In this document: in pieces, positions 10,988-59,837 of the stretch
Position numbering within the stretch: position 1 is the first letter of the stretch
How the letters are laid out: each line of letters starts with the position of its first letter
Origin: Dehalococcoidales bacterium
Lineage (GTDB): Bacteria > Chloroflexota > Dehalococcoidia > Dehalococcoidales > BS750m-G39
Assembly: GCA_023129255.1 (NCBI GenBank)
Contig: JAGMCH010000060.1
Coordinates: forward strand, 1 to 60,658
DNA: 60,658 nucleotides
Direction: 5' to 3'
The notes under the pieces: model-generated
The model's database searches: none
What the model was told of the DNA's origin: nothing
The model's input: the letters and a program-made list of their open reading frames with translations, nothing else
Position numbers and translations under genes: made by a program

Positions 10988-11188
10988 TTACTTGATCTTG
11001 TGAGCCTCTTCTCCGATTCTCTTGATGTCAGCCTCCATGAACAGCCTCCATCCTCGTCTGTCCCTGTGAGGTACATCGTCAAGGATACCAGCCTTAAGCC
11101 ATCGAAACAGGGTAGACCTGCCTATGCCCACCACTCGACAGACCTCTGAGGTTCTATAATAGGTCTCTCCTTTGATTATGACTGGCAT
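10988..11188 (-). CDS. MerR/excisionase-family helix-turn-helix protein (66 aa)
   Basis: YYRTSEVCRVVGIGRSTLFRWLKAG is the HTH_17/Xis-MerR type motif. The size is typical of excisionase or AlpA-like regulators. Confidence 0.7.
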   Translation of the reverse strand: MPVIIKGETYYRTSEVCRVVGIGRSTLFRWLKAGILDDVPHRDRRGWRLFMEADIKRIGEEAHKIK

Positions 11189-18865: not shown

Positions 18866-20410
18866 ATGAGGTCAGCATTCTATCGCAGAGTCTCACTTGA
18901 TGAGCAAGTAACAGGCACGTCACTTGAGAATCAGAAGGCAAAACTGGGAGTCTTTTGTGGTGGTGATGAGACAATCTTGGATTATTGTGACGCTGGCTGC
19001 AGCGGTAAGGACGACAGACGTCCTGACCTACAGAGACTGCTAACAGACGCCAAACTACGACGCTTTGACCGTCTCGTATGCACTACGCTCGACAGACTTG
19101 CGCGCAATTTGCGATTACTACTCGAGCTTGATGAGGAACTACGCAAGCACAGCATCTACCTAGTCTTCATTGACCAAGGGGTCGACACTTCCAAGCCAAT
19201 GGGGAAGTTTGTCTTCCAAATTCTCGGCATTATCGCTGAGTGGGAGAGAGAGACTATTATTGAACGAACCAAATCTGGTCGCTATGCTCGTTATCAGGAA
19301 GGCAAATGGGGGCCAGGGCAACCACTGTATGGCTATGCTTATAACAGGGAAACCAAAAAGCTGGAGATTAGAGAGGATGAGATGGCAGTAGTTAAACGCA
19401 TTTATAGTCTCTACGTGTTTGACAGGCTGGGGATGGAGCAAATCGCAAGGCTGCTAAATATCGACCATGTGAAACCACGCCAGCAAGGCAGGTTATGGCA
19501 TAAGGCAGCAGTTCGGGACATCCTCATACACCCCGCCTATAAGGGCGAACATCCTACCGGTGTCGAAACACCTACCATTATCGAACCTTGGTTGTGGGAA
19601 TCAGCCCAGAAAAGACGCCATGAGAATCCACACCTACATCGTCGTAAAGGTTTGCGTTGGCTATTGCAGGGCATGATTCATTGCGGGCTTTGCGGTCGCA
19701 TACTGAGTTGCTCATACTCGCATGGCACTAAAGGTCGCCGAGTTTACTCATGCCCTGGTAGACGACTTGAAACTAAAGCTGCAGATGAGCAGAGGTGCCA
19801 GCTACCAACCCTTGACGCCGAATGGTTGGAACAGAAGGTCTATGATCACTTCACTGATGCCATGAGCAACCCAGAGGCAATGTCAAAAACGCTAAGAGAC
19901 GCTATCACTAGCCTCACAGTGAGGAAAACTCAACTAGAGGAAGAAATAAAACCAGTTGATGATAAGCTAGCCGAGATAGGGGAGAAATTAGAGAGATTGG
20001 CTGAGGACTGGGTTGTGAAACGTTTAAACCCAGAGAAGGCAGATTTAATGCGACATAAGCTAGAAGCTGAAGAGGTGAGGCTAACAGGCGTAAAACAGAA
20101 CTTAGATCCGGAACAGCTAGCCGAGCTTGAAGATATGGACTTTAGGCTTGAGCTGTACCAAGGCCAACTCAACTGCATTGCAAGGGGAGATACTGAAGGC
20201 TTTCCTTTCCTGATAATGGATCTACCTGAGACAAAGGACGAGGCTGAGCTTCAGACTGTCGCAAGAAGAGCCTCCCTCGACTACGTTCAGGCAGAGCTTT
20301 GGGCATACCCAGACCGTACCGAGGTCAAGGCACAAATTCCCGTAACAAGTGTTGAATCGCAACAGTTGGAACCTGGTTATAGGTCAGGACGTTACCCACA
20401 ATCTCGATGA
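18866..20410 (+). CDS. Large serine recombinase (phage-integrase type)
   Basis: Catalytic N-terminus AFYRRVSLDEQ, resolvase core ..LDRLARN.., recombinase domain, zinc ribbon CGLCGR..YSCPG, and a long coiled-coil. The last ~12 codons run antisense through the capsid gene stub. Confidence 0.88.
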   Translation: MRSAFYRRVSLDEQVTGTSLENQKAKLGVFCGGDETILDYCDAGCSGKDDRRPDLQRLLTDAKLRRFDRLVCTTLDRLARNLRLLLELDEELRKHSIYLVFIDQGVDTSKPMGKFVFQILGIIAEWERETIIERTKSGRYARYQEGKWGPGQPLYGYAYNRETKKLEIREDEMAVVKRIYSLYVFDRLGMEQIARLLNIDHVKPRQQGRLWHKAAVRDILIHPAYKGEHPTGVETPTIIEPWLWESAQKRRHENPHLHRRKGLRWLLQGMIHCGLCGRILSCSYSHGTKGRRVYSCPGRRLETKAADEQRCQLPTLDAEWLEQKVYDHFTDAMSNPEAMSKTLRDAITSLTVRKTQLEEEIKPVDDKLAEIGEKLERLAEDWVVKRLNPEKADLMRHKLEAEEVRLTGVKQNLDPEQLAELEDMDFRLELYQGQLNCIARGDTEGFPFLIMDLPETKDEAELQTVARRASLDYVQAELWAYPDRTEVKAQIPVTSVESQQLEPGYRSGRYPQSR

Positions 20411-20516
20411 AGGGCATCTGCTGAAGGATGGGCGAGTCCTTGACTATAGTCTCCACTACTCCTTGAAGTAGCATATCATTTGACAGCTTGGCTGCCTCAT
20501 CTAATGTTAAAGCCAT
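20325..20516 (-). pseudogene. 5' stub of a phage major capsid gene (about 48 native codons, then unrelated sequence)
   Basis: MALTLDEAAKLSNDMLLQGVVETIVKDSPILQQMPFIEIVGNVLTYNQ.. matches the N-terminal pattern I associate with HK97-fold major capsid proteins. It sits directly after portal and scaffold. Only 63 codons remain, and it converges on and overlaps the recombinase 3' end. Confidence 0.5.
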
Positions 20517-20519
20517 TTT

Positions 20520-21011
20520 CTATCTCCTTTCTCCTATTGCGTATTGAATCTTCTCCTGTGGGGATAGGGCTGAGAGGTCTACCGGCGTCCTCTGTGGAGC
20601 CCCAGCCGGCACCCTAGCCCCGGCTATCTCGGCCTCCAGTTCCTTCCTCACCCTGTCGATGAGGGTCTGGGCATCTTCCACCGACTTATCAATAGCCTCA
20701 ATGCTGTCCCCGGCTATCAGCTCTTCGGGCATACCGGGGTTTGATTTGACCGCCAGAGCCCGGTAGCTTGATACTACCTGAGATAGACTATTCTCCAGGT
20801 CAGTCAACTTCTGCTCTAGCTCAGCCATAGATTGCTTGAGGGCAGCAATTTGGTTATCCTTGCTGGCTATGGCTTGCTCAAGTTCAGAGAGGCGCAAGTC
20901 CTTGGCCGCCAGCTGCTCATCCTTCTCGGCTATCAGCCCCTCAAGCTCGGTAGTTCTGGAAGTCTCCGGCTCTTCCCCGCTGGGATTTTGGTTTTGTTTA
21001 TTATCTGGCAA
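20520..21011 (-). CDS. Phage scaffolding protein (coiled-coil, acidic)
   Basis: 163 aa with a Glu/Leu/Ala-rich coiled coil. Sits in the canonical position between portal and capsid genes. Confidence 0.6.
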   Translation of the reverse strand: MPDNKQNQNPSGEEPETSRTTELEGLIAEKDEQLAAKDLRLSELEQAIASKDNQIAALKQSMAELEQKLTDLENSLSQVVSSYRALAVKSNPGMPEELIAGDSIEAIDKSVEDAQTLIDRVRKELEAEIAGARVPAGAPQRTPVDLSALSPQEKIQYAIGERR

Positions 21012-21023
21012 TTTTCGACCTCC

Positions 21024-22424
21024 TTATGAGGAAGATTCCTCAACGCCTTCGGTCTCCGTGGCTGAAACTCTCCCTCTCTCTCCGCCTCGCGTTGACCTGG
21101 CGTTAAGCTCTTTATTCATCCTGAGGATAGCCTCCCTCTCCTCCAACCACCGCTCGAACTCATCCTCTGAGTCTTTAACCCCTATTTCATCCATAGCCCT
21201 ACGCCTGGAGTGGATACCGGTCTGAACCAGCGTCTGTTCGTTGGCAACCAGCCTGGTTAAATCCTGAGGCAGTATCGGACTCCATATTACCCGCAGGCGG
21301 TTATTATCGCCAAACTCCGTTCCCTGGTACCTCTCCAGGAGCTTGAGAATGAGCCTGTTTCTACGGTTATAGACCGCAGTCCTGATAATCCGCTTTCGCC
21401 TTACCTTCTGAAGTAGTGGGTTAAGCTCAATCTCAAGGGCTACCCCCGATAAGTCCCTCTCGGTGCCGCCAAAGGCAGCCCGAGGAGATTCCGATATGTC
21501 ATGCAGGGTCCTGTATAGTAGATTTATATAATCTATGTGCAGCCTGACCCCCCCACCCTGCAAGAGGTCAAGCAGATAGGCTTTAGCATCCTCGGGGATA
21601 TTCCACACCGCCCCGGGTTTGACCGTAATATCCTCAGATTCCTCCACGTTCTCCAGCACGGCAATGGGGTTGCCCGATAGCTCTAATATCCGGGATAGCT
21701 GTGACATCGCCCGATTAAGCTCCTGCTGCGACTCTATAATCTGTGACAAATCAGATATGCCCCAGAACCTCTTTGGCTCCCTGAGGTTAGGGTAGATGAT
21801 AAACGGGATAAAGCCGTAGGGATTGGGCTTACTTTCAATCAGGTTATCATCTAGGTAAAGCTCAAATTCCCCGTCGGTCCACAGCTCAACAACGGTCGCC
21901 TTCTTAGCCTTGGGCTTCACCTGATACAGGAACTCGGTTTCCTCGGCACTCAGGCTGTATTTAGAGGCTACCCTCCATATTCTTGAGGTATCATCCCCCA
22001 GCCACCAGGCATAGATGCCCTGGACATCGGGGGCGGTAATCCTCACCCTCTTTGCCTCCCCGTCCCAGATAACCTTATAGCTGGCATCGCCCAGGATAGC
22101 GCAATCAATCTCGGTCTCAAGGTCGAGCTGCTCCAGATTATTATCCTCGTAAACCTGGTGCAGGGTGGCCTCGGCTCTCTGGGCTCTGGCTTTATCCTCC
22201 TCCGAGCCCCCCGCCGCTTCCACAGCAAAGTTAATGCCCGACATTAGATATGAAGTAACCTTGTCTATGAATACCTTGGTATAGTTGAAGGTCAGGCGTT
22301 TCTCCCCTCGCCTTTCCCTACCTTCCCACTGCCGACCATGGTAGAAATCAAGTAGCCCTCTATACTCTCTGAGCCGGTCTATATCATGGCGGTTTAACTG
22401 GGCGATAATAGAAGTTTTATTCAT
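21024..22424 (-). CDS. Phage portal protein (SPP1 gp6-like)
   Basis: 466 aa. N-terminal ..YYHGRQW..LTFNYTKVFIDKVTSYL.. pattern, acidic C-terminal tail, and position in the head module. Confidence 0.8.
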   Translation of the reverse strand: MNKTSIIAQLNRHDIDRLREYRGLLDFYHGRQWEGRERRGEKRLTFNYTKVFIDKVTSYLMSGINFAVEAAGGSEEDKARAQRAEATLHQVYEDNNLEQLDLETEIDCAILGDASYKVIWDGEAKRVRITAPDVQGIYAWWLGDDTSRIWRVASKYSLSAEETEFLYQVKPKAKKATVVELWTDGEFELYLDDNLIESKPNPYGFIPFIIYPNLREPKRFWGISDLSQIIESQQELNRAMSQLSRILELSGNPIAVLENVEESEDITVKPGAVWNIPEDAKAYLLDLLQGGGVRLHIDYINLLYRTLHDISESPRAAFGGTERDLSGVALEIELNPLLQKVRRKRIIRTAVYNRRNRLILKLLERYQGTEFGDNNRLRVIWSPILPQDLTRLVANEQTLVQTGIHSRRRAMDEIGVKDSEDEFERWLEEREAILRMNKELNARSTRGGERGRVSATETEGVEESSS

Positions 22425-22731
22425 TGGTGCCCCCTAAAATCTTGATTTTTGGGGTAGATTCCTCTCTGGCTCTCTTTAATATCCGCTGAATGGTGCGCTG
22501 ACTAACGCCGAACATCAATGCCAGCTCCTTTATTCCTTTACCCTGGGCGGTGAATAGCCTTAACACCTCTTTGTCTCTCAACCTCTTCAGCCACCGCTGC
22601 CTGCCCCCAGGCTGGGCATAAATACATTCTGGAAACGGGCAGTTGAGGCAGGAGCTAGCAAATTCGCATCCATCATCCTGGTAGCGGCAATACTCCGGCA
22701 ACAAATCCAAATCGCTCTCATCCAAACACAT
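22417..22731 (-). CDS. Phage small Cys-rich / HTH protein (104 aa)
   Basis: N-terminal Cys cluster (CEFASSCLNCPFPEC). C-terminal HTH IKELALMFGVSQRTIQRILKRA. Overlaps the portal start by 8 nt. Confidence 0.6.
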   Translation of the reverse strand: MCLDESDLDLLPEYCRYQDDGCEFASSCLNCPFPECIYAQPGGRQRWLKRLRDKEVLRLFTAQGKGIKELALMFGVSQRTIQRILKRAREESTPKIKILGGTNE

Positions 22732-22765
22732 AGCGTCTCTTTCAAAACGAACCGGTACGATGCTT

Positions 22766-22794
22766 ATATTAGCACACTTGTTCTATATGGTCAA
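22766..22794 (-). promoter_or_regulatory. Promoter for the HTH-portal-scaffold operon
   Basis: Minus strand reads TTGACC, 17 nt, TAATAT, about 35 nt upstream of ATG 22731. Confidence 0.5.
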
Positions 22795-22821
22795 TGATGT
22801 TTTGTCGTATTTTGGCAGGCA

Positions 22822-22851
22822 TTGACAGAGCATAAAGCCATCGTTTATCAT
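22822..22851 (+). promoter_or_regulatory. Promoter for the surface-protein gene
   Basis: TTGACA (22822-22827), 18-nt spacer, TATCAT (22846-22851). Confidence 0.5.
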
Positions 22852-22893
22852 TAGATAGGTTTTGCAATCTGGCAAAAATGATGGAGGTAAAAG

Positions 22894-24531
22894 GTGAAGT
22901 ATAATAGGTTTTTACGCACTCTGGCTGTAGCCGTTATCCTTTCCCTGCTGATGATAGCCATACCGGCTACACCAGCCCTGGCTGCAGAGACACTCGCGGC
23001 CTACCCCAGCAGTGGTGAAGTCGGTGATAATGTTAACGTTTTCGGTGATTTTTTCCTGCTTACGGCCCCAGTGTATATCTACTTCTCCAGCCAGTGGGCG
23101 AAGGCGGGTGATTTCATGGATGTTGATGTTACTGCCTATGAAAAGATGGTAACAAAAACACCCGACGCGGAAGGTTATTTTAATACCGATTTCGAAGTTC
23201 CTGATGAACTCACTGACGGTGACGATGAGGAGGATGTCCATAGCGGCTACTACTATATCTATACCGCCTATTCCGATGACGAGATACTTACCGTTACCGA
23301 ATTCACTGTAAGAGGCGTTGAGCTGGACCCGAGTGAAGGTCCGGTAGGCACTGAGGTTGAGATTGATGGCATCGGCTTTAAGGAAGACAGGGGTGTTATC
23401 ATCGAATACGATGGCACTAATGTGGATATAGTTAGTGGTGATGAAGAAACTGATAGCTATGGTGAATTTAGCTCAACAACTATTATTATCCCCGAGAGCA
23501 CTGCCGGTGACCACACCATAAGAGTTAAGGCTTATTATATTGTTGAGATTAAGTTTAGCGTGGAGCCGACGCTGGCTATTAGCCAAACTTCGGGCGTAGT
23601 CGGTGATGAGGTAACGGCTAACGGCACCGGCTTCGGCTATAAGAAGAGTGTTACCATCACCTTTAGTGGTATTGAGGTGGCGACTGACGTGACCAATGAA
23701 GATGGCAGCTTTGAGACTGTCTTTGAAGTGCCCGAAGTGGGACCGGGAACCTATGAGGTTGAAGCTAGGGATAAGAGTAATAACGAAGCTAGTACTGCCT
23801 TCACCATCACTACCAACCTCGCTATCAGCCCGGTTACCACTGCGGATTCACCCGGCTATGTCGGCGAAAGCGTAACCGTTAGTGGCACCGGCTTTAAGCC
23901 TAGCTGGCAGATAACCATCACCTACGCTTCTACGCCAGTTGTGTTTACCACTACCAGTGAAGAAGACGGCAGCTTTTCCTATACCTTTGAGGTGCCTCCC
24001 AGTGCAGCCGGGGCTCACACCATAACTGCCACTGACGGCACAGGCAACGCAATGCAGGTCATCTTTTTCATGGAGTCAACGCCACCTGGAATACCGTTAC
24101 CAATGCTGCCATACATGGATGAAAAGGCGGCTTCAGAGGCATACTTTGACTGGGCTGATGTTACCAAGGATGCTAATGGTGCTGTCGAGCTGAGCACGCC
24201 AGTAACCTATGACTTCCAGGTAGCTACTGATGCCGATTTCGCCAATATATTAGTGGAGAAGACAGGGCTGACCATATCGGAATATACCCTCACTGAGGAG
24301 GAGAAGCTGGAGTCAACCAGTAAGGAAGAACCTTACTACTGGAGGGTGAGAGCTGTAGATGCTGCCTCCAATGTCAGCGATTGGTCAGGCGCCGGCACTT
24401 TCTATGTTGGCTTTTCCTTTAAAATGCAGGGCTGGCTGCTATATACCCTGATAGGAATCGGAGCGATTGGGGTCTTTTTCCTCGGCTTCTGGCTGGGCAG
24501 GAGGACCATCCCCGAAGATTATTATTACTAG
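22894..24531 (+). CDS. Secreted, membrane-anchored protein with four IPT/TIG-like Ig repeats and an FN3-like domain
   Basis: Signal peptide. Four ~90-aa repeats each carry a G.VG..V.V.G.GF motif. The YYWRVRAVDAASNVSDWS segment is FN3-like. C-terminal TM helix plus RR anchor. Confidence 0.7.
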   Translation: MKYNRFLRTLAVAVILSLLMIAIPATPALAAETLAAYPSSGEVGDNVNVFGDFFLLTAPVYIYFSSQWAKAGDFMDVDVTAYEKMVTKTPDAEGYFNTDFEVPDELTDGDDEEDVHSGYYYIYTAYSDDEILTVTEFTVRGVELDPSEGPVGTEVEIDGIGFKEDRGVIIEYDGTNVDIVSGDEETDSYGEFSSTTIIIPESTAGDHTIRVKAYYIVEIKFSVEPTLAISQTSGVVGDEVTANGTGFGYKKSVTITFSGIEVATDVTNEDGSFETVFEVPEVGPGTYEVEARDKSNNEASTAFTITTNLAISPVTTADSPGYVGESVTVSGTGFKPSWQITITYASTPVVFTTTSEEDGSFSYTFEVPPSAAGAHTITATDGTGNAMQVIFFMESTPPGIPLPMLPYMDEKAASEAYFDWADVTKDANGAVELSTPVTYDFQVATDADFANILVEKTGLTISEYTLTEEEKLESTSKEEPYYWRVRAVDAASNVSDWSGAGTFYVGFSFKMQGWLLYTLIGIGAIGVFFLGFWLGRRTIPEDYYY

Positions 24532-24612
24532 ATTTAGGGTAACCTCTCCCCCTGACCCCCTCCCCTTATCAAGGGGAGGGGGAACTTTTTATGGAAAAGG
24601 GAGCTTCAGCGC
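24532..24612 (-). repeat. GC-rich palindromic repeat unit (reverse orientation, copy R1)
   Basis: ATTTAGGGTAACCTCTCCCCCTGA followed by CCCCCTCCCCTT-atc-AAGGGGAGGGGG (24556-24582) and then AACTTTTT. It is the reverse complement of the 28391-28441 unit and can act as a + strand terminator for 22894..24531. Confidence 0.8.
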
Positions 24613-24663
24613 TGTATAATTAGGTCAGAGAGAACCGTCGGCAAATCCTATAAGGAGAAGATT

Positions 24664-25224
24664 ATGGAAAATAGGGTAGCAATCTTCATAGATGGTAGCA
24701 ATCTATATCACGCTCTACGAGGTAACTTTAAACGCCAAGACATCAACTTCGCTGATTTTACCAGCAAGCTATGTGGGTCCAGGAGCTTGTTCCGGACATA
24801 CTACTACAACGTCTTACAGGACCCAATGCAATGGCCTGAGGGCTATCGAGAACAACAGGAATTCCTTGATATCCTGCGCAAGACACCATATCTGGAGGTT
24901 CGGCTAGGGAGTACCAAGGTGGCACAGGGTGTCGCTGTTGAGAAGGGTATAGATATTATGCTGGCTACAGACCTGCTATATTTTGCTTGGAATGACTTCT
25001 ACGACGTGGCAATGCTTGTGAGCGGTGATTCTGATTTCGCTTATGCTCTTCAAGCTGTAAAGAACATGGGTAAGCATGTTGAGGTAGCCTACTTCGAGAG
25101 AGGGATATCCAAGGACCTTTTGAGTGTAGCCGATGACCGCTATCTACTGAACCGGAGCTTCTTCAAGGGTTTGTGGGTAGGTAGACGTCGTATCAAACAC
25201 AGAAAGGTCAGCGGAGAAGACTAA
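24664..25224 (+). CDS. NYN-domain (LabA/DUF88-like, PIN-fold) predicted RNase
   Basis: VAIFIDGSNLYHAL, GIDIMLATDL and LVSGDSDFAYAL acidic motifs typical of NYN/LabA proteins. Confidence 0.8.
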   Translation: MENRVAIFIDGSNLYHALRGNFKRQDINFADFTSKLCGSRSLFRTYYYNVLQDPMQWPEGYREQQEFLDILRKTPYLEVRLGSTKVAQGVAVEKGIDIMLATDLLYFAWNDFYDVAMLVSGDSDFAYALQAVKNMGKHVEVAYFERGISKDLLSVADDRYLLNRSFFKGLWVGRRRIKHRKVSGED

Positions 25225-25322
25225 ATTTATAGGTAATCCCACCCCCTGACCCCCTCCCCTTGATAAGGGGAGGGGGAATTTTTTAATAAAAAAGGGGGCT
25301 TACGCCCCCTCTTGGACTCTCT
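25224..25322 (-). repeat. GC-rich two-hairpin repeat unit (reverse orientation, copy R2)
   Basis: CCCCCTCCCCTT-gat-AAGGGGAGGGGG (25250-25276) plus a T-run, then AGGGGGC-ttac-GCCCCCT (25293-25310). It is the reverse complement of the consensus seen at 28351-28441. Confidence 0.85.
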
Positions 25323-25335
25323 TCTTCCCCCCGAT

Positions 25336-25596
25336 TTATGCAGGGAGTTTGATATGATGTTTCGCTAACAATCGCTCTATTTCCCCGCGATGGGGCAGGT
25401 CGTTTGGAATCACGCCCTCGCTGACACAAAGCAATTCTATACCCATTGGGTTTCCGGCTGCATCATAATCAATGCGCCTTTCATCATCTAAGTCAACTCC
25501 ATAAGCATACGGTGCATCGCTAAGATATATATATATAGCATCAGCTTCTCTGTCATATTCTAATCTCACTTGCCACCTCCTTATCTTAATCCCCAA
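25336..25596 (-). CDS. DUF2283-family protein (putative antitoxin)
   Basis: YDREADAIYIYLSD motif. 86 aa. Overlaps the upstream DUF4258 gene by 11 nt. Confidence 0.7.
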   Translation of the reverse strand: MGIKIRRWQVRLEYDREADAIYIYLSDAPYAYGVDLDDERRIDYDAAGNPMGIELLCVSEGVIPNDLPHRGEIERLLAKHHIKLPA

Positions 25597-25795
25597 CCGT
25601 GATTATCTTATCTGGATTATCTTTTGCCACCACGACTTTGATGCGCCGATCATTTGGGGTTGTTGACCTATAAACAGGGTTGCCTTTCTTGTCCGTATGA
25701 GATACGTCGTAATTATTGAGGCAATACTCTATTTCCGCTTTAGTTATTGAGCGTTCTCGCATCCTTTTGCGGGCGTGATTAGTGTATTGTAACAT
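25586..25795 (-). CDS. DUF4258-family protein (putative toxin)
   Basis: N-terminal YTNHARKRMRERSITKAEIE pattern. 69 aa. Paired with DUF2283, a recurrent two-gene arrangement. Minus-strand promoter candidate upstream: TTGACA at 25897-25902, 17-nt spacer, TATACA at 25874-25879. Confidence 0.7.
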   Translation of the reverse strand: MLQYTNHARKRMRERSITKAEIEYCLNNYDVSHTDKKGNPVYRSTTPNDRRIKVVVAKDNPDKIITVGD

Positions 25796-25922
25796 AACAT
25801 AGCCGACCTCCTTTCGCCAGCCGAATGCCAGCTTCTCGCGCTATCTCCTGCAAACAATCGCCCACAAGTACATACTAATTGTATAACATTTGACTAGACA
25901 CTTGTCAACTTTTTGCCCCCCA

Positions 25923-25950
25923 TTGACACCCCTTACTTTAGTAGTATAAT
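25923..25950 (+). promoter_or_regulatory. Consensus sigma70 promoter pointing antisense into abiV
   Basis: TTGACA (25923-25928), 16-nt spacer, TATAAT (25945-25950). No + strand ORF with an RBS lies downstream. Confidence 0.4.
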
Positions 25951-25986
25951 CCGCCCCCTCTTAAACTCTCTTCCATTTAATCTCAA

Positions 25987-26706
25987 CTAATTATCCATTT
26001 TGTCCTCAATTTGCCCCAAGTTTAGCCAGTTCATTAATTGATTTACGTCCATTCCATCTTTATACTTACCCCGTTCCTTCAATTCAGCAAAGTAATGTAG
26101 TGAAGCTTTCCTTACGTCATCCATGTCCATATCCATGCCCTTCTTAAAATGCTTGGCCCATATCCTTAAATCCTCTACCGTTTCTTCTTCATCGCTCTTC
26201 AGAAGTTTAGCTGTTTCTAGCGTTATCTCCGCTAATTCTTCATTCATAAATTTAGATGGTTCAGACCATCTAATTTCTCCTATGCAATCTGTATACAAGC
26301 AAAACTGCTTCAGTTGCTCTATCATATAAGCGTGTTTCCCTGTGGAAAAAAGATGTTTTAAATCATCGAACTTCCATTTGCCCATAGCAATAAAATGTGG
26401 AAGTAACCACATCATATTTTTCTTAGTATGTTTTCTATAATCTCTCCAGTGGTCAATAATATCCTTATTTTTAGTTAATACGGACATTCCTCGAAGTAGC
26501 GATTTCTTACCAGACTCTTCGATAGACAATATTGCTAGAGCTGCGGCTGACGCGTATCTTTTATTCTTTAGTAGTAATTCCGCGTCCTCAATTAAGCTAA
26601 TAGCATTTCTATTTGCAGCATTAATACCATTAGCTATCTGCTTAAAGTTAAGTTTTCCCTTGTATTGAGGTGTACCCTTTGTTACATCATCTATTGACAT
26701 CAGCAT
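25987..26706 (-). CDS. AbiV-family abortive-infection protein (HEPN)
   Basis: ..NAISLIEDAELLLKNKRYASAAALAILSIEESGKK.. is the characteristic AbiV N-terminal helix pair. RDYRKH fits the HEPN Rx4H motif. Confidence 0.75.
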   Translation of the reverse strand: MLMSIDDVTKGTPQYKGKLNFKQIANGINAANRNAISLIEDAELLLKNKRYASAAALAILSIEESGKKSLLRGMSVLTKNKDIIDHWRDYRKHTKKNMMWLLPHFIAMGKWKFDDLKHLFSTGKHAYMIEQLKQFCLYTDCIGEIRWSEPSKFMNEELAEITLETAKLLKSDEEETVEDLRIWAKHFKKGMDMDMDDVRKASLHYFAELKERGKYKDGMDVNQLMNWLNLGQIEDKMDN

Positions 26707-26802
26707 TCACCTCCATTTGCAGAATACCTAAATCGTTCGCCTTGATTCTTGTTTATTATACTACAGTCCACTCCTTCAGGGAGACAACCTAAATATATAA
26801 AA

Positions 26803-28197
26803 TTACTCCCCCCTCACCCTCCCCACGGCTGTTTTCGGCTCATACTGGTTGGCGGCTTCCACCACCAGTGCCAGGCTCATGAGGAAGTCGTCGTGCCCCT
26901 CAGCCGGGCTGACATAGAAATTTACGGTCTGTGACGGGCGGAACTGACTCTTTGCCCTCTCCATCTCATTCCAGAACTCCCTATGCTCATCTGAGCCGTC
27001 TCCAGCGTAAACCTTCAGCCTGCCCGAGTTAATAGCGGCTAAAAGATTGAAGCCCAGCTCCGACTTCGCCCGCGCTGTGAAGGTAAAGGCTGAGACCTTT
27101 GAGCCGAGCGCTTTCCTTAAAAACGAGCTTACCGGCTGGCCGATGCCGGTGGCATCAACCACCACCTTGCGGCAGTGCCACACATTTTTGAGGATATCAA
27201 CCAGCCGGGGGTAGAGCCGGGTGTGCTTCTCGCCTGTCCACCAGTAGTGCTCAACCACGCATACCCTTGGCTGCTTCTGGATGTCGTCGCAGATAGAGAA
27301 GTCCAGCTCCCCGATGGTAACCACCGTGGAGTCCTGGTGCGGCTTGAGACTGCTCAAATATACTCCCTCCTCCACCTCAGCCTCCCCCGCCAGGTCGATG
27401 CCGGCAACATAGACCTTGCCCCGCTCGGACGAGTGCTTTCTCATATGCTCCCCGTTTAGCTGAGCCAACTGCTGCCGACTCAAAAAACCACCGCCGCCAT
27501 GGATGGGTAAAAGCCGATACTGGGTCAAAAACAGGGGGTGATTTTCGCCCAGACGCTCTCTTTCTGCCTCAACATAGGCTAGGTAATCAGGGTTATAGCT
27601 GGCTATCTCCTGCCAGTCATATCGGAAGTGGCGCTTAACACCGTCCTTCCTCTCCAGTTCAAGGTTGGTCTGCTTCACCTCCTCCAGCAGGGTAGAATCG
27701 TCCCAGGTAGTGCCGTAGTGGACGGTGGTAACATTGGTCGTTGCCCCCATCGGCTTGAACTCCTTGGTGTATTTCTCCCGGCTCACATCCTGCGACTCGT
27801 CTATTTCCAGCAAAATGTGGGCGGTGTTGCCCACCACATTGGCTGAGACATCGGCAGAGAGAAATATTGCCCTGGCATTCCCCAGCCTGATGATATAGCC
27901 CAGCTCAGCCATCCAGATGCCGCTGAATCCAGCGTCATTCAACCTATCCTTGAGCCGCATCATGGAGATGACTGTCTGCGGCTTGAAGGTGGGCGAGCAC
28001 TTCACCAGGTTCTGGGGCTGGGTCATATACAGGGTTAACAGCAGAAGCTCAAGCTGGGCTGATAGCTCATTCTTACCTCCCTGACGAGCCATTTCCACCG
28101 AGAAGGTAAGCCCCTTCTTGCCGAAAACACTGCTCAATATAGCCGAAGCCACCTCCCGCTGGTATGGTCTCAGCCTATTAATACTGTTCATTGACAT
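26803..28197 (-). CDS. Phage terminase large subunit
   Basis: 464 aa. N-terminal ATPase with LRPYQ..ARQGGKNE P-loop-like motif. C-terminal RNase H-like nuclease motif VVVDATGIG. Preceded by a terS-like gene. Confidence 0.8.
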   Translation of the reverse strand: MSMNSINRLRPYQREVASAILSSVFGKKGLTFSVEMARQGGKNELSAQLELLLLTLYMTQPQNLVKCSPTFKPQTVISMMRLKDRLNDAGFSGIWMAELGYIIRLGNARAIFLSADVSANVVGNTAHILLEIDESQDVSREKYTKEFKPMGATTNVTTVHYGTTWDDSTLLEEVKQTNLELERKDGVKRHFRYDWQEIASYNPDYLAYVEAERERLGENHPLFLTQYRLLPIHGGGGFLSRQQLAQLNGEHMRKHSSERGKVYVAGIDLAGEAEVEEGVYLSSLKPHQDSTVVTIGELDFSICDDIQKQPRVCVVEHYWWTGEKHTRLYPRLVDILKNVWHCRKVVVDATGIGQPVSSFLRKALGSKVSAFTFTARAKSELGFNLLAAINSGRLKVYAGDGSDEHREFWNEMERAKSQFRPSQTVNFYVSPAEGHDDFLMSLALVVEAANQYEPKTAVGRVRGE

Positions 28198-28225: not shown

Positions 28226-28441
28226 GTGTCTTGCTTCCCACCCTCCCACCCAATAGAGGCTCCGCCTCTCTTCAATTCTCTTAATTTTTCTTCCCCCCGC
28301 CCTCATAAGCTGCGCTTCTAAAACTTTCTGCCCTGCCCCCCGTTTTAATTGGGGAGTTTAAGAGGGGCGAAGCCCCTCTTTTTAATAATCCTCCCCCTCC
28401 CTTGATAAGGGAGGGGGATACAGGGGGAGGGTTCCCTAAAT
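28226..28441 (+). repeat. Composite multi-hairpin GC-rich repeat (C-rich/G4 module plus two-hairpin module), copy F1
   Basis: Contains CTTCCCACCCTCCCACCC, AGAGGCTCCGCCTCT and a second TTTTTCTTCCCCCCGCCCT module. Then GGGGAGTTTAAGAGGGGCGAAGCCCCTCTT (28351-28380) and CCTCCCCCTCCCTTGATAAGGGAGGGGGATACAGGGGGAGGGTTCCCTAAAT (28390-28441). Confidence 0.85.
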
Positions 28442-28444
28442 TCA

Positions 28445-28822
28445 CTATTTAGTGACGGTTTGTCCGATGCCGATGCCGAGCGGGATGGCGATATCCTTGA
28501 GGACATTGCCTATAGCCTCCTTCAGCCCCTTCCTCTGCTCTTTGCTGATGTTGTATCTGGTCCTGACCAGTCTCTCCAGGGCATTGGTCATCTGCAGAAT
28601 GAGCTGGATATTCTCCGGGTCATTCTGCAGCAGAGACTTTATCTTAACCCGAAGTAGGGCAATCTCATCATCAAAGCCCTCAACGCCAGAGGCTAGTTCA
28701 AAATCTAGCTGTTCCGCTTCGTCCAGCACTTTAGAGTAGAAGCCGTGTTTACGAGCGTTCTGATTGCCCTTTGGGGCGCCTCTTTTTCGCTTTACCTTTT
28801 CCGCCATCCGGTCTATCTCCAT
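28445..28822 (-). CDS. Putative terminase small subunit
   Basis: Basic N-terminus KRKRGAPKGNQNARKHGFYS, a motif seen in small terminase-like phage proteins, and position just upstream of terL. The start may be ATG 28807 (GGAGA RBS). Confidence 0.5.
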   Translation of the reverse strand: MEIDRMAEKVKRKRGAPKGNQNARKHGFYSKVLDEAEQLDFELASGVEGFDDEIALLRVKIKSLLQNDPENIQLILQMTNALERLVRTRYNISKEQRKGLKEAIGNVLKDIAIPLGIGIGQTVTK

Positions 28823-29030
28823 TCTTCAGTAGCCTGGCAGTAGCCAAGACGATGGTATGGGCGGCCAGGTCCCACCGTTTAGTCTCCACGGCCAGTCGCA
28901 GCAGTCTCATCGCCTCCCCCTTTCTGCGTATTTATAATAGCACATATGTTCTAATATGACCATAAGCAGTTGTCATGTTTTACCGGGGGTGAGCTGGTTC
29001 AGATTGCACCCCACCCCACAGCTACTTTAG

Positions 29031-29250
29031 GTTTTTCTTCCCACCCTCCCACCCTATAGGGGCTTTGCCCTTAACCCCCTGCTTTCAGGGGTGTTTCAGA
29101 GGGACATAGTCCTTTCTAAAATCTTTTCCCTCTTGAGGGAGACAAACATGAAAATGGAGTTTAAGAGGGGCTGACGCCCCTCTTTTTAAATATCCTCCCC
29201 CTTCCCCTTGTCAAGGGGAAGGGGGATACAGGGGGATAGGGTTCCCAAAT
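29031..29250 (+). repeat. Composite multi-hairpin GC-rich repeat, copy F2
   Basis: Contains TTTTTCTTCCCACCCTCCCACCC, GGGGCTTTGCCC, CCCCCTGCTTTCAGGGG and AGAGGGACATAGTCCTTTCT. Then GGAGTTTAAGAGGGGCTGACGCCCCTCTT and CCTCCCCCTTCCCCTTGTCAAGGGGAAGGGGGATACAGGGGGATAGGGTTCCCAAAT. Confidence 0.85.
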
Positions 29251-29298
29251 GAATTGATATTATGGTATAGCCGTTATAGAATAGGCTGGAAGTGAGAA

Positions 29299-30460: not shown

Positions 30461-30821
30461 GGTCAAGTAAACCGGGTGACCGCTGTGGTAGCTTGCTATT
30501 ACAGAGGAAAGTCCGAGCTCCACCGGGCAGGATGCTGGGTAACGCCCAGGAGGGGTGACCCTACGGAAAGTGCCACAGAAACACACCGCCCTTCAGCCGA
30601 AGGGTAAGGGTGAAATGGTGAGGTAAGAGCTCACCAGCGGCTGGATGACTGGTCGGCTGGGTAAACCCCATCCGGAGCAAGACCAAATAGAGGGACATAG
30701 GGACGCCCGGCCTGTCCCCGGGTTGGTCGCTTGATCCTTCCGGTAACGGAAGGGCTAGATAGATGGTCACCGCCCTTCACTTGTGAAGGATACAGAACTC
30801 GGCTTACAGGTTTACTTGACC
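30461..30821 (+). ncRNA. rnpB: RNase P RNA, bacterial type A
   Basis: P1 pairing of GGTCAAGTAAACC (30461-30473) with GGTTTACTTGACC (30809-30821). Universal motifs GAGGAAAGTCCGAGCTCCAC, ACAGAAACACACCGCC, GGTAAGGGTGAAATGGTG, GTAAGAGCTCACCAG, GGTAAACCCCATCCGGAGCAAGACCAAATAG and ACAGAACTCGGCTTACAG. Confidence 0.95.
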
Positions 30822-30911
30822 TTTTCACCACAATTTCTTCCTCTCCCAGCTTGGAGTTGAGGAAAGGGGAGTAACCGGCGGCTTTTAAGCATAATTAGGG
30901 CTAAAAATATA

Positions 30912-34748: not shown

Positions 34749-34880
34749 AGATTAAGAGGGACGAAGTCCCCCAGAAATAGCCTGCCTTGGAAATGGGGAG
34801 TTTAAGAGGGGGCGAAGCCCCTCTTCTAAAAAAACCTTCCCCCTTCCCCTTGAGGGGAAGGGGGATACAGGGGGATGGGG
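34749..34880 (+). repeat. GC-rich two-hairpin repeat (copy F3) preceded by a degenerate partial copy
   Basis: Degenerate GAGATTAAGAGGGACGAAGTCCCCC, then GGGGAGTTTAAGAGGGGGCGAAGCCCCTCTT and CCTTCCCCCTTCCCCTTGAGGGGAAGGGGGATACAGGGGGATGGGG. Confidence 0.8.
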
Positions 34881-35530
34881 TGAATAATAATAAAAATGTC
34901 TTCGACCAGATAGCCCCGAGCTGGTATAACTTCAGGCACTGGTCTATATTCCGCAGCGAGCTGGAAGCGCTGGCTCGTCGCTGGCAAAAAGGCAAACTGC
35001 TAAACATTGGCTGTGCCCATGGACCTGACTTCTTGCCTTTCAGGCAGGGCTTTGAGCTATATGGGGTGGACTTCTCGGCTGAGATGCTGAAGTTCGCTGA
35101 AAAATACTCCCAAAAATTTGGCTTTGTTGTCAATCTGACGCTGGCTGATGTCTGCCACCTTCCCTATCCCGACCAGACCTTTGACTGGGCAATATCGGTG
35201 GCTACCTATCACCATCTCAGGGGTGGGGAGCAGCCAGCGGCACTAAGTGAGCTCAAGCGGGTATTAAAGCCGGGCGGTGAAGCCTTTATCACGGTGTGGA
35301 ATCGGTGGCAGCCCAGGTTCTGGCTCAAACCGAAGGAGGTAGCTGTCCCTTGGCGAAAAAGGGGCAAGACCCTCTATCGCTACTACTACCTATTTTCTTA
35401 CCCCGAGCTGGGGAAGCTGGTGAAGAGGGCAGGCTTTGAGGTGCTTAAATCATTCCCCGAAAGCGCCTACCGCTTCCCGCTAAAGTTTTTTTCCCGAAAT
35501 ATTTGCCTGCTGGCGAAAAAGAGTGCTTAG
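34880..35530 (+). CDS. Class I SAM-dependent methyltransferase, Trm9-like
   Basis: VFDQIAPSWYNFRHW, LLNIGCAHG (motif I), LPYPDQTFDWAISVATYHHL and LKRVLKPGGEAFITVWN parallel the Trm9/ALKBH8 methyltransferase motifs. Start set at GTG 34880 because the longer ORF translates the repeat element. Confidence 0.65.
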   Translation: MNNNKNVFDQIAPSWYNFRHWSIFRSELEALARRWQKGKLLNIGCAHGPDFLPFRQGFELYGVDFSAEMLKFAEKYSQKFGFVVNLTLADVCHLPYPDQTFDWAISVATYHHLRGGEQPAALSELKRVLKPGGEAFITVWNRWQPRFWLKPKEVAVPWRKRGKTLYRYYYLFSYPELGKLVKRAGFEVLKSFPESAYRFPLKFFSRNICLLAKKSA

Positions 35531-35757: not shown

Positions 35758-35840
35758 TTTTCCCTCCTTTTGGCCTTATTCTATACCAGTATTATAACAC
35801 TCTTGTCAAGTAATTGGCTTCTAGATTTTATTTTGTCAAC

Positions 35841-35925
35841 CTCACCTCCTTAATCCCCCTCTCCTTACCAAGGAGAGGGGGAGAAATAAAAAAGAGGGGG
35901 CGAAACCCCCTCTTAAAACTACTTC
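35841..35925 (-). repeat. GC-rich two-hairpin repeat (reverse orientation, copy R3)
   Basis: CCCCCTCTCCTT-acc-AAGGAGAGGGGG, then AGAGGGGGCGAAACCCCCTCT followed by TAAAAC. Confidence 0.8.
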
Positions 35926-35947
35926 CCCCTTCCCCACTTGAGTCGGC

Positions 35948-43720: not shown

Positions 43721-43948
43721 AAAATTTTTCTTCTCCCCCAACCCCCCCCCGCTGTTTTAAAAAATCTCTTTTCCCCCACCCACCCGCCCTCGGGAGCTTT
43801 GCCCTTAATACCTTTTGCTATTGGGGTGTCTGGAAGGGCAAAGTCCCCAAATATATTACGGGGAGTCTTAGAGGGGCGAAGCCCCTCTTATACAACTAAT
43901 CCCCCCTCCCTTGTAAGGGAGGGGGATAAAGGGGGAGGGTTGCTAAGT
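43721..43948 (+). repeat. Composite multi-hairpin GC-rich repeat, copy F4
   Basis: Contains TTTTTCTTCTCCCCCAACCCCCCCCCGCTG, CCCCCACCCACCCGCCC, GGGAGCTTTGCCC and GGAAGGGCAAAGTCCCC. Then GGGGAGTCTTAGAGGGGCGAAGCCCCTCTT and CCCCCCTCCCTTGTAAGGGAGGGGGATAAAGGGGGAGGGTTGCTAAGT. Collinear with copy F2. Confidence 0.85.
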
Positions 43949-43977
43949 GAATGTTTAAAGGGGGTGAGGTAGATAAA

Positions 43978-54330: not shown

Positions 54331-54412
54331 TGGGGAAGGGGGGATTTGAACCCCCACGCCTTGCGGCACATGATCCTAAATCATGCTCGTCTGCCAATTC
54401 CGACACTTCCCC
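54331..54412 (-). tRNA. tRNA-Leu (anticodon UAG)
   Basis: Minus strand reads GGGGAAGTGTCGGAATTGGCAGACGAGCATGATTTAGGATCATGTGCCGCAAGGCGTGGGGGTTCAAATCCCCCCTTCCCCA. The 7-bp acceptor stem pairs GGGGAAG with CTTCCCC. Anticodon stem is CATGA/TCATG with loop TTTAGGA. Long variable arm and T-loop GGGGGTTCAAATCCCCC. Confidence 0.93.
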
Positions 54413-59570: not shown

Positions 59571-59780
59571 TATAAAAATCCCCTCGTCTGCAGAACAAGG
59601 GGATTCCCATCATCTATAATCTGCCCCCCTTCTCCGCGGAGGCGACACCAATTAGGGGCTAGTGTTCTGACTTATGAGGTCTAAAACCTCAATCACAGCA
59701 GGCGGGACTGTGGCGGATTTGCACCGCACTTGCCTTCCATTTAAGCCCTCGCTCGTGCAAGGGCACCCCTGTAGCTCTAT
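59571..59780 (-). ncRNA. Cobalamin (B12) riboswitch with terminator-type expression platform
   Basis: Minus strand reads ..AGGGGTGCCC..GAGGGCTTAAATGGAAGGCAAGTGCGGTGCAAATCCGCCACAGTCCCGCCTGCTGTGA..AGTCAGAACACTAGCCCCT. These are the conserved core and a B12-box-like GCCTGCTG. The terminator AATCCCC..GGGGATT plus TTTATAT follows (59571-59608). Confidence 0.85.
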
Positions 59781-59837
59781 TCAGTTTTACTAGAGCATAT
59801 CAAAAAGGCGAGCCAAAGTCAACTTAACTGGTTTGAT

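Follow-up and report, generated by a model that had tools for sequence, protein, structure and literature searches.

A variable spacer between two operons of a phage-derived structural gene cluster in a Dehalococcoidales bacterium, probably filled stepwise by independent genes

A cluster of phage-derived genes in a Dehalococcoidales bacterium (contig JAGMCH010000060.1 of assembly GCA_023129255.1, the whole 60,658 nt of which is called the window here) is divided, between the gene for the large terminase subunit (terL) and that for the portal protein, by DNA at positions 22732-26802. This DNA carries the genes for a protein of immunoglobulin-like (Ig) repeats, a NYN-domain nuclease, a DUF4258/DUF2283 pair, and a HEPN protein of the AbiV family. 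Our comparative analyses make it probable that the region is a variable spacer between two separately promoted, co-regulated operons, one comprising the small terminase gene (terS) and terL and the other comprising a helix-turn-helix (HTH) regulator gene and the portal gene, and that four independent units fill it. The filling would have been stepwise, each unit being transcribed on its own: first the Ig gene, old and order-wide, divergent from the HTH-portal promoter and fast evolving at the membrane-distal end of its product; second the NYN gene, a clade-specific arrival; third the DUF4258/DUF2283 pair, recent, low in guanine-cytosine (GC) content, and with 22-bp direct repeats on both sides; and fourth the AbiV gene, a recent, low-GC HEPN RNase gene. 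Separate transcription is expected because terminator-like and promoter-like sites lie between the units. An initial annotation had proposed an undescribed multi-gene exclusion system; co-localisation of its components was not seen elsewhere, and in relatives the Ig gene is an ordinary accessory gene at this position.

Comparison set and annotation

About 230 related loci (designated by L numbers) were compared, and window proteins were mapped on those from a genome scan with the portal protein and from IMG/VR. The portal scan identified relatives in 166 stretches of species-representative genomes; identity is 69-89% in the best 80 loci, nearly all of which belong to Dehalococcoidales or Dehalococcoidia. 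A terL scan of IMG/VR yielded 57 viral contigs, and a metagenome scan with the NYN protein found relatives encoded at 504 loci, with 80-97% identity in the best 80. Domains were called by profile searches of the window's open reading frames (ORFs) against Pfam, PADLOC, and PHROGs, and ratios of nonsynonymous to synonymous substitution rates (dN/dS) are pairwise NG86 estimates. The ORFs named in the initial annotation (Ig, NYN, the DUF pair, AbiV, terS and terL, HTH, portal, scaffold, and capsid stub) were all recovered where it had placed them, and its domain assignments are backed by Pfam, PADLOC, and PHROGs matches (Table 1).

A variable gap between terL and portal

The terL and portal genes of 42 related viral contigs (terL 56-77% identical) are separated by at most about 100 nt, mostly 8-45 nt, which bears out the earlier proposal that the 4 kb is extra DNA between genes that otherwise abut. 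Seven loci have only the HTH gene plus 20-260 nt between terL and portal. A large gap of 2.4-9.5 kb was found in 29 Dehalococcoidales loci, and because 26 of these 29 hold Ig homologues (one to three each, on the opposite strand), the Ig gene is the normal resident of the gap and not peculiar to the window. The other gap ORFs, 76 in number, fall into 53 clusters, mostly singletons, and encode HTH_17, MMPL, SDR, patatin, CGGC, SocA/Panacea, and tubulin/FtsZ-family proteins, a TRAP transporter, MscL, and an AMP-binding enzyme; PADLOC models match few of them. Across the order, the gap is thus best described, from its gene content, as a general variable region and not a pure defence island.

Six ORFs in these 29 gaps match HTH_17. 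A small MerR/HTH_17 (excisionase-like) gene also lies at 10988-11188 (minus strand) of the window, to the left of a large serine recombinase gene described below, and it has homologues (66-71% identical) inside the terL-HTH gaps of L007, L011, and L012.

Separate promoters and a common operator

The TTGACC/TAATAT promoter that the initial annotation assigned to the downstream head genes is present, with a 17-nt spacer, and a promoter was likewise identified upstream of terS (Table 1). Alignment of the Ig/HTH intergenic region from 19 loci revealed a near-invariant block, ACGACAAAA...TTGAC-N5-6-TAGAACAnnTGTGCTAnTAT. An operator core of the form AGAAC-N4-GTGCT (AGAACAnnTGTGCT, also TAGAACAnnTGTGCTA) occurs in exactly two perfect copies in the 60-kb window, and both copies fill promoter spacers, one upstream of HTH-portal and the other upstream of terS. 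Related loci totalling 1.68 Mb contain 100 exact copies (about 3 expected by chance), of which 84 are found upstream of HTH and 14 upstream of terS, 98 in all; the Ig gene has no such operator. The motif may in part represent an extended -10 element, and it may resemble the Gram-positive LexA box (GAAC-N4-GTTC)/Cheo box. From this motif distribution, the terS-terL and HTH-portal operons appear to be co-regulated units, and insertions between them would be tolerated because each has its own promoter with the common operator.

True-phage relatives (L093, L094, L096, and L100) carry a canonical-looking CGAACAAGAGTTCT palindrome about 40 nt upstream of a gene of 118-120 codons near terS.

The Ig surface protein gene

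The AlphaFold model of the Ig protein (mean confidence score, pLDDT, of 80) contains a signal helix at residues 5-22, five beta-sandwich domains, and a transmembrane helix at residues 513-537, and the model therefore predicts a secreted product that carries five Ig-like domains and is anchored in the membrane at its C terminus. The family is large (at least 1306 clusters) and its repeat number varies. Overall dN/dS of the Ig gene is 0.25-0.97, and its divergence is much faster than that of the cluster genes. For the membrane-distal residues 41-310, pairwise dN/dS against the closest relative, L139, is 1.8-2.9, an estimate built on few substitutions, versus about 0.1-0.2 in neighbouring genes. 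These values suggest diversifying selection on the surface protein, a pattern that would fit a receptor or an exclusion factor. Fold searches with the model returned generic multi-Ig matches only, with TM-scores of at most 0.27; the best PDB match was an archaeal S-layer protein (7ptp; TM-score, 0.18), and we treat this resemblance as a lead and not as a result.

Such properties raise the alternative that the Ig gene is a working partner of the particle cluster, as a receptor, recipient, or superinfection-exclusion factor, and that only NYN, the DUF pair, and AbiV are cargo. The genomic arrangement is in keeping with a partnership, as the Ig gene adjoins the HTH gene on its upstream side in divergent orientation in 41 loci, and the two conserved promoters lie only about 50 bp apart with the conserved ACGACAAAA block between them; the build of signal peptide, five Ig domains, and anchor, the membrane-distal dN/dS above 1, and the S-layer protein as best fold match point the same way. 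The fold match is generic, however, the Ig gene lacks the operator noted above, and it is absent from the phage relatives and from loci L037, L081-L083, L128, and L131. On balance, we consider a partnership of this kind conceivable but rather unlikely.

The NYN nuclease gene

The initial annotation had also paired the NYN gene with the Ig gene, and here the comparison gave a different picture: 42 Ig homologues in 26 loci have no adjacent NYN gene, and an Ig gene stands beside NYN in 5 of the best 80 NYN loci. Among the 36 of these best 80 loci that are at least 7 kb long, the Ig-NYN-...-terL placement was found in three only, L139 (97%), L140 (96%), and L144 (91%). The commonest neighbours elsewhere are genes for a Liv-type ABC transporter, a cNMP-binding protein, and acetyl-CoA synthetase, and in other loci NYN lies near HIT and IspH. 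The dN/dS of NYN is 0.15-0.20. With relatives in 504 metagenome loci, high identity, low dN/dS, and housekeeping surroundings, NYN fails the expectation of a patchy, defence-island gene; it appears to behave as a housekeeping nuclease gene that is located in the gap only in the window's clade. Between the Ig gene and NYN lie a terminator-like hairpin and a promoter-like site.

A hypervariable slot beside terL

The right-hand part of the spacer is where the closest genomes differ. In a DNA alignment of the window with L139, L140, and L144, homology ends at about position 25330, in the repeat after NYN, and resumes at the terL stop codon (26803). The flanks of this slot (the NYN repeat and terL) are 83-94% identical in DNA among the four genomes, and the slot holds four unrelated contents: the DUF4258/DUF2283 pair plus AbiV in the window; four small ORFs only in L139; a DUF4411 gene, a gene for an HTH/Peptidase_M78 protein like the RosmerTA antitoxin RmrA (1.7e-20), and further small genes in L144; and a three-gene operon in L140. 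From these contents, the slot between the NYN repeat and the terL stop seems to behave as a small defence/addiction hotspot. The L140 operon (L140:6724-8910, minus strand) encodes proteins of 263, 209, and 251 amino acids, none of which had a Pfam or PADLOC match, and is a candidate defence or addiction system.

The arrangement seen in the window was found only in contigs of one population (ZHAN22-2 metagenomes; metagenome-assembled genome GCA_030629395.1). Save for contigs of that population, AbiV and the DUF pair are absent from all 217 other loci; DUF4258 is absent from the related loci except at one unrelated position in L081. The GC content is 0.36 over AbiV and 0.41-0.45 over the DUF4258/DUF2283 pair, versus 0.52-0.58 in terL and portal. 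The initial annotation had regarded these genes as foreign cargo of defence or toxin-antitoxin (TA) type, and the low GC content and population-only distribution agree with it; we would add that AbiV and the DUF pair are probably independent acquisitions, low in GC and confined to the population.

The DUF4258 and DUF2283 ORFs lie on the same strand with an 11-nt overlap (public gene calls place them 16 nt apart), and the pair has the predicted layout of a type II TA module. No solved structure of DUF4258 or DUF2283 was found, nor did a literature search return a paper naming both domains. Direct repeats of 22 bp stand on both sides of the module, which a recombination event involving a repeat copy may have brought in.

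In the AbiV protein, the HEPN_AbiV domain is full length (model positions 1-153 of 155) and the Rx4H motif reads R88DYRKH93. All 84 AbiV homologues carry PF18728. Outside the window population the nearest homologue has 48% identity, and members of the family are scattered among Proteobacteria, Syntrophus, and others; no relatives were found in IMG/VR. Four homologues inspected in their own contexts adjoin integrases, HTH or HicB genes, or conjugation genes, and NYN, DUF4258, DUF2283, or Ig genes were never beside AbiV in these four contexts. The match to the solved AbiV structures 9bj5 and 9bj7 is weak (E of about 2e-4). AbiV of Lactococcus is a HEPN RNase that degrades rRNA, is restrained by an upstream RNA antitoxin, abiV2, and depends on the essential residues R91 and H97 (bioRxiv 10.1101/2024.05.05.592566). 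An abiV2-like RNA was not detected in the 96 nt between the AbiV start and the terL stop of the window, where the predicted fold (z = -0.1) is no better than that of shuffled sequence. By analogy with the Lactococcus protein, AbiV of the window would act alone as a HEPN RNase and the DUF pair would act as a TA module; the two modules would not be expected to cooperate, either with each other or with NYN or the Ig protein.

A perfect sigma-70 consensus promoter lies between the DUF pair and AbiV and points antisense to the latter (Table 1). It could be the source of an antisense or antitoxin RNA, or else a remnant of an insertion.

Dispersed GC-rich repeats and the single-system alternative

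The palindromic core of the GC-rich repeats is real (0 matches expected by chance), and a profile built from four repeat copies finds seven copies in the window, four of which fall within 5 kb around the cluster. The repeat unit folds into two strong hairpins, and, read on the plus strand, the copies after Ig and after NYN score as intrinsic terminators. Repeats occupy the same intergenic positions in L139, L140, and L144 only, and the core has no exact match in 137 more distant related loci. Relatives outside the window clade have overlapping terS and terL genes; in the window, a repeat copy separates them.

Copies also lie in ordinary host intergenic DNA at 34777-34888, 35828-35937, and 43838-43950. 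Two further copies, at 28330-28445 and 29130-29253, stand on both sides of terS. None of these five copies figures in the initial annotation.

That annotation had described each cargo unit as bracketed by repeats. Copies do lie where this would require them, two of them complete and one partial (Table 1), but they occur in host DNA as well, so they do not mark cassette borders. To judge from their placement, the repeats are lineage-specific dispersed intergenic elements, similar to repetitive extragenic palindromic sequences or miniature inverted-repeat transposable elements (REP/MITE).

It is in light of these distributions that the idea of one phage-exclusion system, formed by Ig, NYN, the DUF pair, and AbiV and inserted as a cassette with the repeats as borders, becomes highly improbable. 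Four units do crowd into 4 kb, three of them with nuclease-type folds, the Ig-then-NYN order is kept in four close relatives, NYN matches a PADLOC candidate model (HEC-09), and 22-bp direct repeats flank the DUF pair, all of which would suit such a system. The units differ in age and distribution, however: Ig is order-wide, NYN is clade-wide and usually located elsewhere, and the DUF pair and AbiV are population-only. They differ also in GC content, and they lie on opposite strands with promoter-like and terminator-like sites of their own. The proposal that the three nuclease modules act as one system fares no better, as AbiV homologues occur without these neighbours and the three closest relatives hold other genes in the slot; the repeats, for their part, recur in host intergenic DNA and on both sides of terS.

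A phage-derived structural gene cluster under selection

Annotated terminases of isolated phages match the terL product at 32% identity over 94% of its length. Among related loci, terS was found beside terL in 54 (47-84% identity), HTH in 90, and scaffold in 128. Intact relatives (L003, L013, L011, L026, and L226) encode after scaffold an SU10/HK97-type capsid protein of 306 amino acids and proteins of about 168 and about 317 amino acids, followed by an SU10-adaptor-like protein of 197 amino acids and proteins of about 110 and 667 amino acids. Beyond the gene for the 667-amino-acid protein, the flank encodes an FAD-dependent protein, DUF454, ribosomal protein S21 (rpsU), and YqeY; on the other side, DUF164, RNase H, and the RNase P RNA gene (rnpB) directly precede terS. 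L021 holds both host flanks and has no integrase, lysis, or replication genes, and in L021, L003, L013, and L226 the cluster runs between host genes from terS to the gene for the 667-amino-acid protein.

The dN/dS of portal (0.08-0.13) and terL (0.08-0.12) is equal to or lower than that of DUF164 (0.11-0.31) and RNase H (0.08-0.22) in the host flanks; for terS it is 0.14-0.28. Sequence identity of cluster genes rises and falls with that of flanking host genes (Spearman rho, 0.67-1.0). The capsid family is very large: its 90%-identity clusters number more than 5696, and with the L140 capsid as query the top 120 all reach at least 90% identity. Given fixed flanks, purifying selection, and co-divergence with the host, the cluster reads as domesticated and vertically inherited; we take it to be a selected, podovirus-like, structural-gene-only element that is probably organised like a gene transfer agent (GTA). 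A literature search found no description of a GTA in Dehalococcoidia or Dehalococcoides, or of a Dehalococcoidia prophage with terminase and portal. The elements of a preprint on Dehalococcoides viruses (IME1 elements) are unrelated and lack tailed-phage genes.

Interruption of the capsid gene

The capsid gene of the window is cut after ...ACCTATAACCAGG (ACCTAYAAYCAGG), at codon 48/49 (window positions 20371/20372). The window, L144, and L025 share this exact breakpoint, and in L007, L024, and L027 the break falls within 1-2 nt of it; a restored capsid gene would read ...AACCAGG/AAAAGACC, the slash marking the break. A large serine recombinase gene on the opposite strand stands at the cut in the window, L025, L144, L007, and L024, and these recombinases are 40-81% identical to one another. 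L140, a close relative (portal 92% identical), has an intact capsid gene, and L025 (portal 78%) has the window-type recombinase (81%), so the insertion does not follow host phylogeny. The truncation thus appears to be a precise, site-specific insertion and not erosion, and the capsid gene seems to serve a family of mobile elements as attachment site. As it stands, with an element in codon 48/49, the window cluster is predicted to be unable to make capsids.

The contigs of L047, L058, and L066 end at capsid codons 46-53. Such ends would be expected if the populations were mixed for the inserted element.

Searches of the window with L003 queries for the remaining capsid gene and the downstream proteins matched only the 52-residue N-terminal piece. 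As to a second junction, a capsid search gave full-length proteins only among its 120 listed hits, lookups of two capsids with identical N termini gave intact relatives only, and none was present on the longest scaffold (317 kb), which ends about 19 kb beyond the recombinase. The DNA left of the recombinase encodes host-type functions. Excision, deletion, and inversion are all possible events at the capsid break.

These observations bear on another alternative, close to the initial view of the cluster as a head-only prophage remnant: that it descends from a decaying temperate prophage with morons, whose head genes are functionless and whose cargo rode in with the phage. The capsid is indeed truncated after 48 codons, tail and lysis genes are lacking in the window, and distant IMG/VR relatives are genuine temperate phages: beside terS, both L125 and L137 encode a tyrosine integrase and an HNH endonuclease, and L125 also encodes a methyltransferase. 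Nevertheless, terS, terL, portal, scaffold, and HTH are all full length, and portal and terL have a dN/dS of about 0.1 even between the window and L144, both of which are capsid interrupted. The same flanks recur across species whose synonymous sites are saturated, the cluster diverges in step with the host, no integrase is present in the two-flank loci, the capsid family is large and conserved, and the truncation is precise. Decay is therefore an unlikely account, and a cluster that is selected and vertically inherited, with its capsid gene cut by a site-specific insertion, takes the place of the remnant first proposed.

Weighing the stepwise-filling interpretation

Several observations count against a variable spacer filled by independent units on a selected cluster. 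The slot was sampled in four genomes only, and two of its four contents have no recognisable defence genes; moreover, every relative compared is a metagenome-assembled contig. The order Ig then NYN is kept in the nearest relatives (L138, L139, L140, and L144), NYN matches HEC-09 at 3.5e-17, and a clade-specific functional link between Ig and NYN might exist. In addition, dN/dS was measured between lineages, and the capsid interruption may leave the window cluster non-functional. Even so, we hold stepwise filling of the spacer by four independent units to be the probable history of 22732-26802.

A broader reading can be put forward tentatively, as a possibility with somewhat less than even prospects. 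Here, the cluster would be an undescribed, order-wide, domesticated and GTA-like particle system of SU10/podovirus type with two promoters and one operator. The fast-evolving, S-layer-like Ig protein would serve as its receptor or exclusion partner, serine-recombinase elements that attach at codon 48/49 of the capsid gene would switch the system off and perhaps on again, and the 4 kb would be its cargo gap.

The cassette itself is ordinary, consisting of known defence/TA families, a housekeeping nuclease, and a surface protein in a hotspot. Its value is that of a negative result, in that the clustering of nuclease-fold genes here would reflect stepwise accretion. Dehalococcoidales are abundant in the subsurface, respire organohalides, have small genomes, and lack genetic tools; a selected, order-wide cluster of terminase, portal, capsid, and connector genes with a common operator is a candidate route of horizontal gene transfer among them. 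The slot beside terL, for its part, merits a search for new defence genes, the L140 trio being an example.

Feature map of the window

Positions of the features discussed above are collected in Table 1 together with a few others. The left part of the window (1-18.8 kb) was considered as a phage or an integrative and conjugative element and ruled out, as it encodes an Opp transporter, a flavoprotein with ferredoxin, regulators, and a radical SAM enzyme.

Table 1. Coordinates of genes, repeats, and predicted regulatory sites in the 60,658-nt window
Feature	Position	Strand	Evidence or remark
terS	28445-28822	-	PHROG terminase small subunit, 8.5e-8; first gene of the packaging operon
terL	26803-28197	-	Terminase_6C and PHROG terL matches
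AbiV-family HEPN RNase gene (predicted)	25987-26706	-	Pfam HEPN_AbiV (PF18728), 1.2e-33; PADLOC AbiV, 3.8e-9
DUF4258, putative toxin gene	25586-25795	-	Pfam, 4.5e-14
DUF2283, putative antitoxin gene	25336-25596	-	Pfam, 2e-12; 77-amino-acid product in public gene calls
NYN-domain nuclease gene	24664-25224	+	Pfam NYN, 4.5e-26; PADLOC candidate HEC-09, 3.5e-17
Ig protein gene	22894-24531	+	Pfam TIG and Big_6 matches
Cys-rich Mor/sigma-r4-like HTH regulator gene	22417-22731	-	First gene of the head operon; Mor and HTH_23; PHROG late transcriptional activator
Portal gene	21024-22424	-	SPP1_portal, 2.8e-29; phrog_64, 3e-44
Scaffold gene, coiled-coil	20520-21011	-	Position and coiled-coil matches
Capsid stub, 63-codon ORF	20325-20516	-	Capsid-derived part 20372-20516 (first 48 codons); phrog_212 positions 4-54
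Large serine recombinase gene	18866-20410	+	phrog_95 integrase, 8e-93; Resolvase, Recombinase, and Zn_ribbon_recom domains
GC-rich repeat copy A	24531-24625	.	Terminator-like hairpin 24556-24582 after Ig; promoter-like site 24592-24620 before NYN
GC-rich repeat copy B	25225-25335	.	Terminator-like after NYN; left edge of the hypervariable slot
Partial repeat copy	25952-25973	.	Right 22-bp direct repeat; partner 25303-25324; family D8, 91% identity
Repeat copy between terS and terL	28330-28445	.	Wider repeat block 28228-28443; folds at -61 kcal/mol, z = -4.7
terS promoter, TGGTCA-17-TATTAT	28934-28962	-	Operator AGAACATATGTGCT at 28939-28952
HTH-portal promoter, TTGACC-17-TAATAT	22766-22810	-	Promoter 22794-22766; operator AGAACAAGTGTGCT at 22771-22784; ACGACAAAA block upstream
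Ig gene promoter, TTGACA-18-TATCAT	22822-22851	+	Divergent from the HTH-portal promoter; conserved across 19 loci
Consensus promoter, TTGACA-16-TATAAT	25923-25950	+	12/12 matches; antisense into the AbiV 3' end
RNase P RNA (class A)	30464-30822	+	
Cobalamin riboswitch	59640-59783	-	
tRNA-Leu	54331-54412	-	

Comparison with known systems

Prophages and satellites such as P2/P4 carry variable defence hotspots between conserved genes, and the slot beside terL is similar in having conserved flanks (terL on one side, NYN/Ig/HTH-portal on the other), contents that differ in the four closest genomes, and known defence/TA families among those contents (AbiV in the window and the RosmerTA-like RmrA in L144). 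It differs in its carrier, which appears to be a chromosomally fixed cluster of structural genes only and not a mobile prophage, and in that the order-wide gap holds mostly ordinary host-type genes. Within the slot, AbiV shares with its Lactococcus counterpart a full-length HEPN_AbiV domain, an Rx4-6H motif at the equivalent position (R88...H93 versus R91...H97), and the character of a single, small, horizontally scattered gene. In contrast to the Lactococcus system, the 96 nt upstream have no significant RNA structure, and a perfect antisense promoter is found at the 3' end instead.

The repeats resemble REP/MITE elements in being units of about 100 nt with two GC-rich hairpins, intergenic, often between convergent genes, and terminator-like; unlike those elements, the family is lineage-confined and crowds four of its seven window copies around the cluster.

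Gene-splitting elements excised by large serine recombinases are known from skin (SpoIVCA), SPbeta (SprA), and the cyanobacterial fdxN element (XisF). The capsid break of the window is comparable in that a large serine recombinase abuts a precise break inside a coding gene and that one site is used by diverged elements, here in six genomes, whereas here a capsid gene within a phage-derived cluster is the target and a single junction was seen.

The closest parallel for the cluster as a whole may be RcGTA, whose structural genes are siphovirus-like and whose cluster has a fixed chromosomal position. The cluster described here belongs to a different phylum (Chloroflexota; Dehalococcoidales), has SU10/podovirus-like instead of siphovirus-like structural genes, is split by a cargo gap into two operons, and, unlike RcGTA, is known from its genes alone. 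With RcGTA it nonetheless shares a set of head, packaging, and connector genes that comes without integrase, replication, or lysogeny genes, as well as a fixed chromosomal position, purifying selection, and divergence along with the host.

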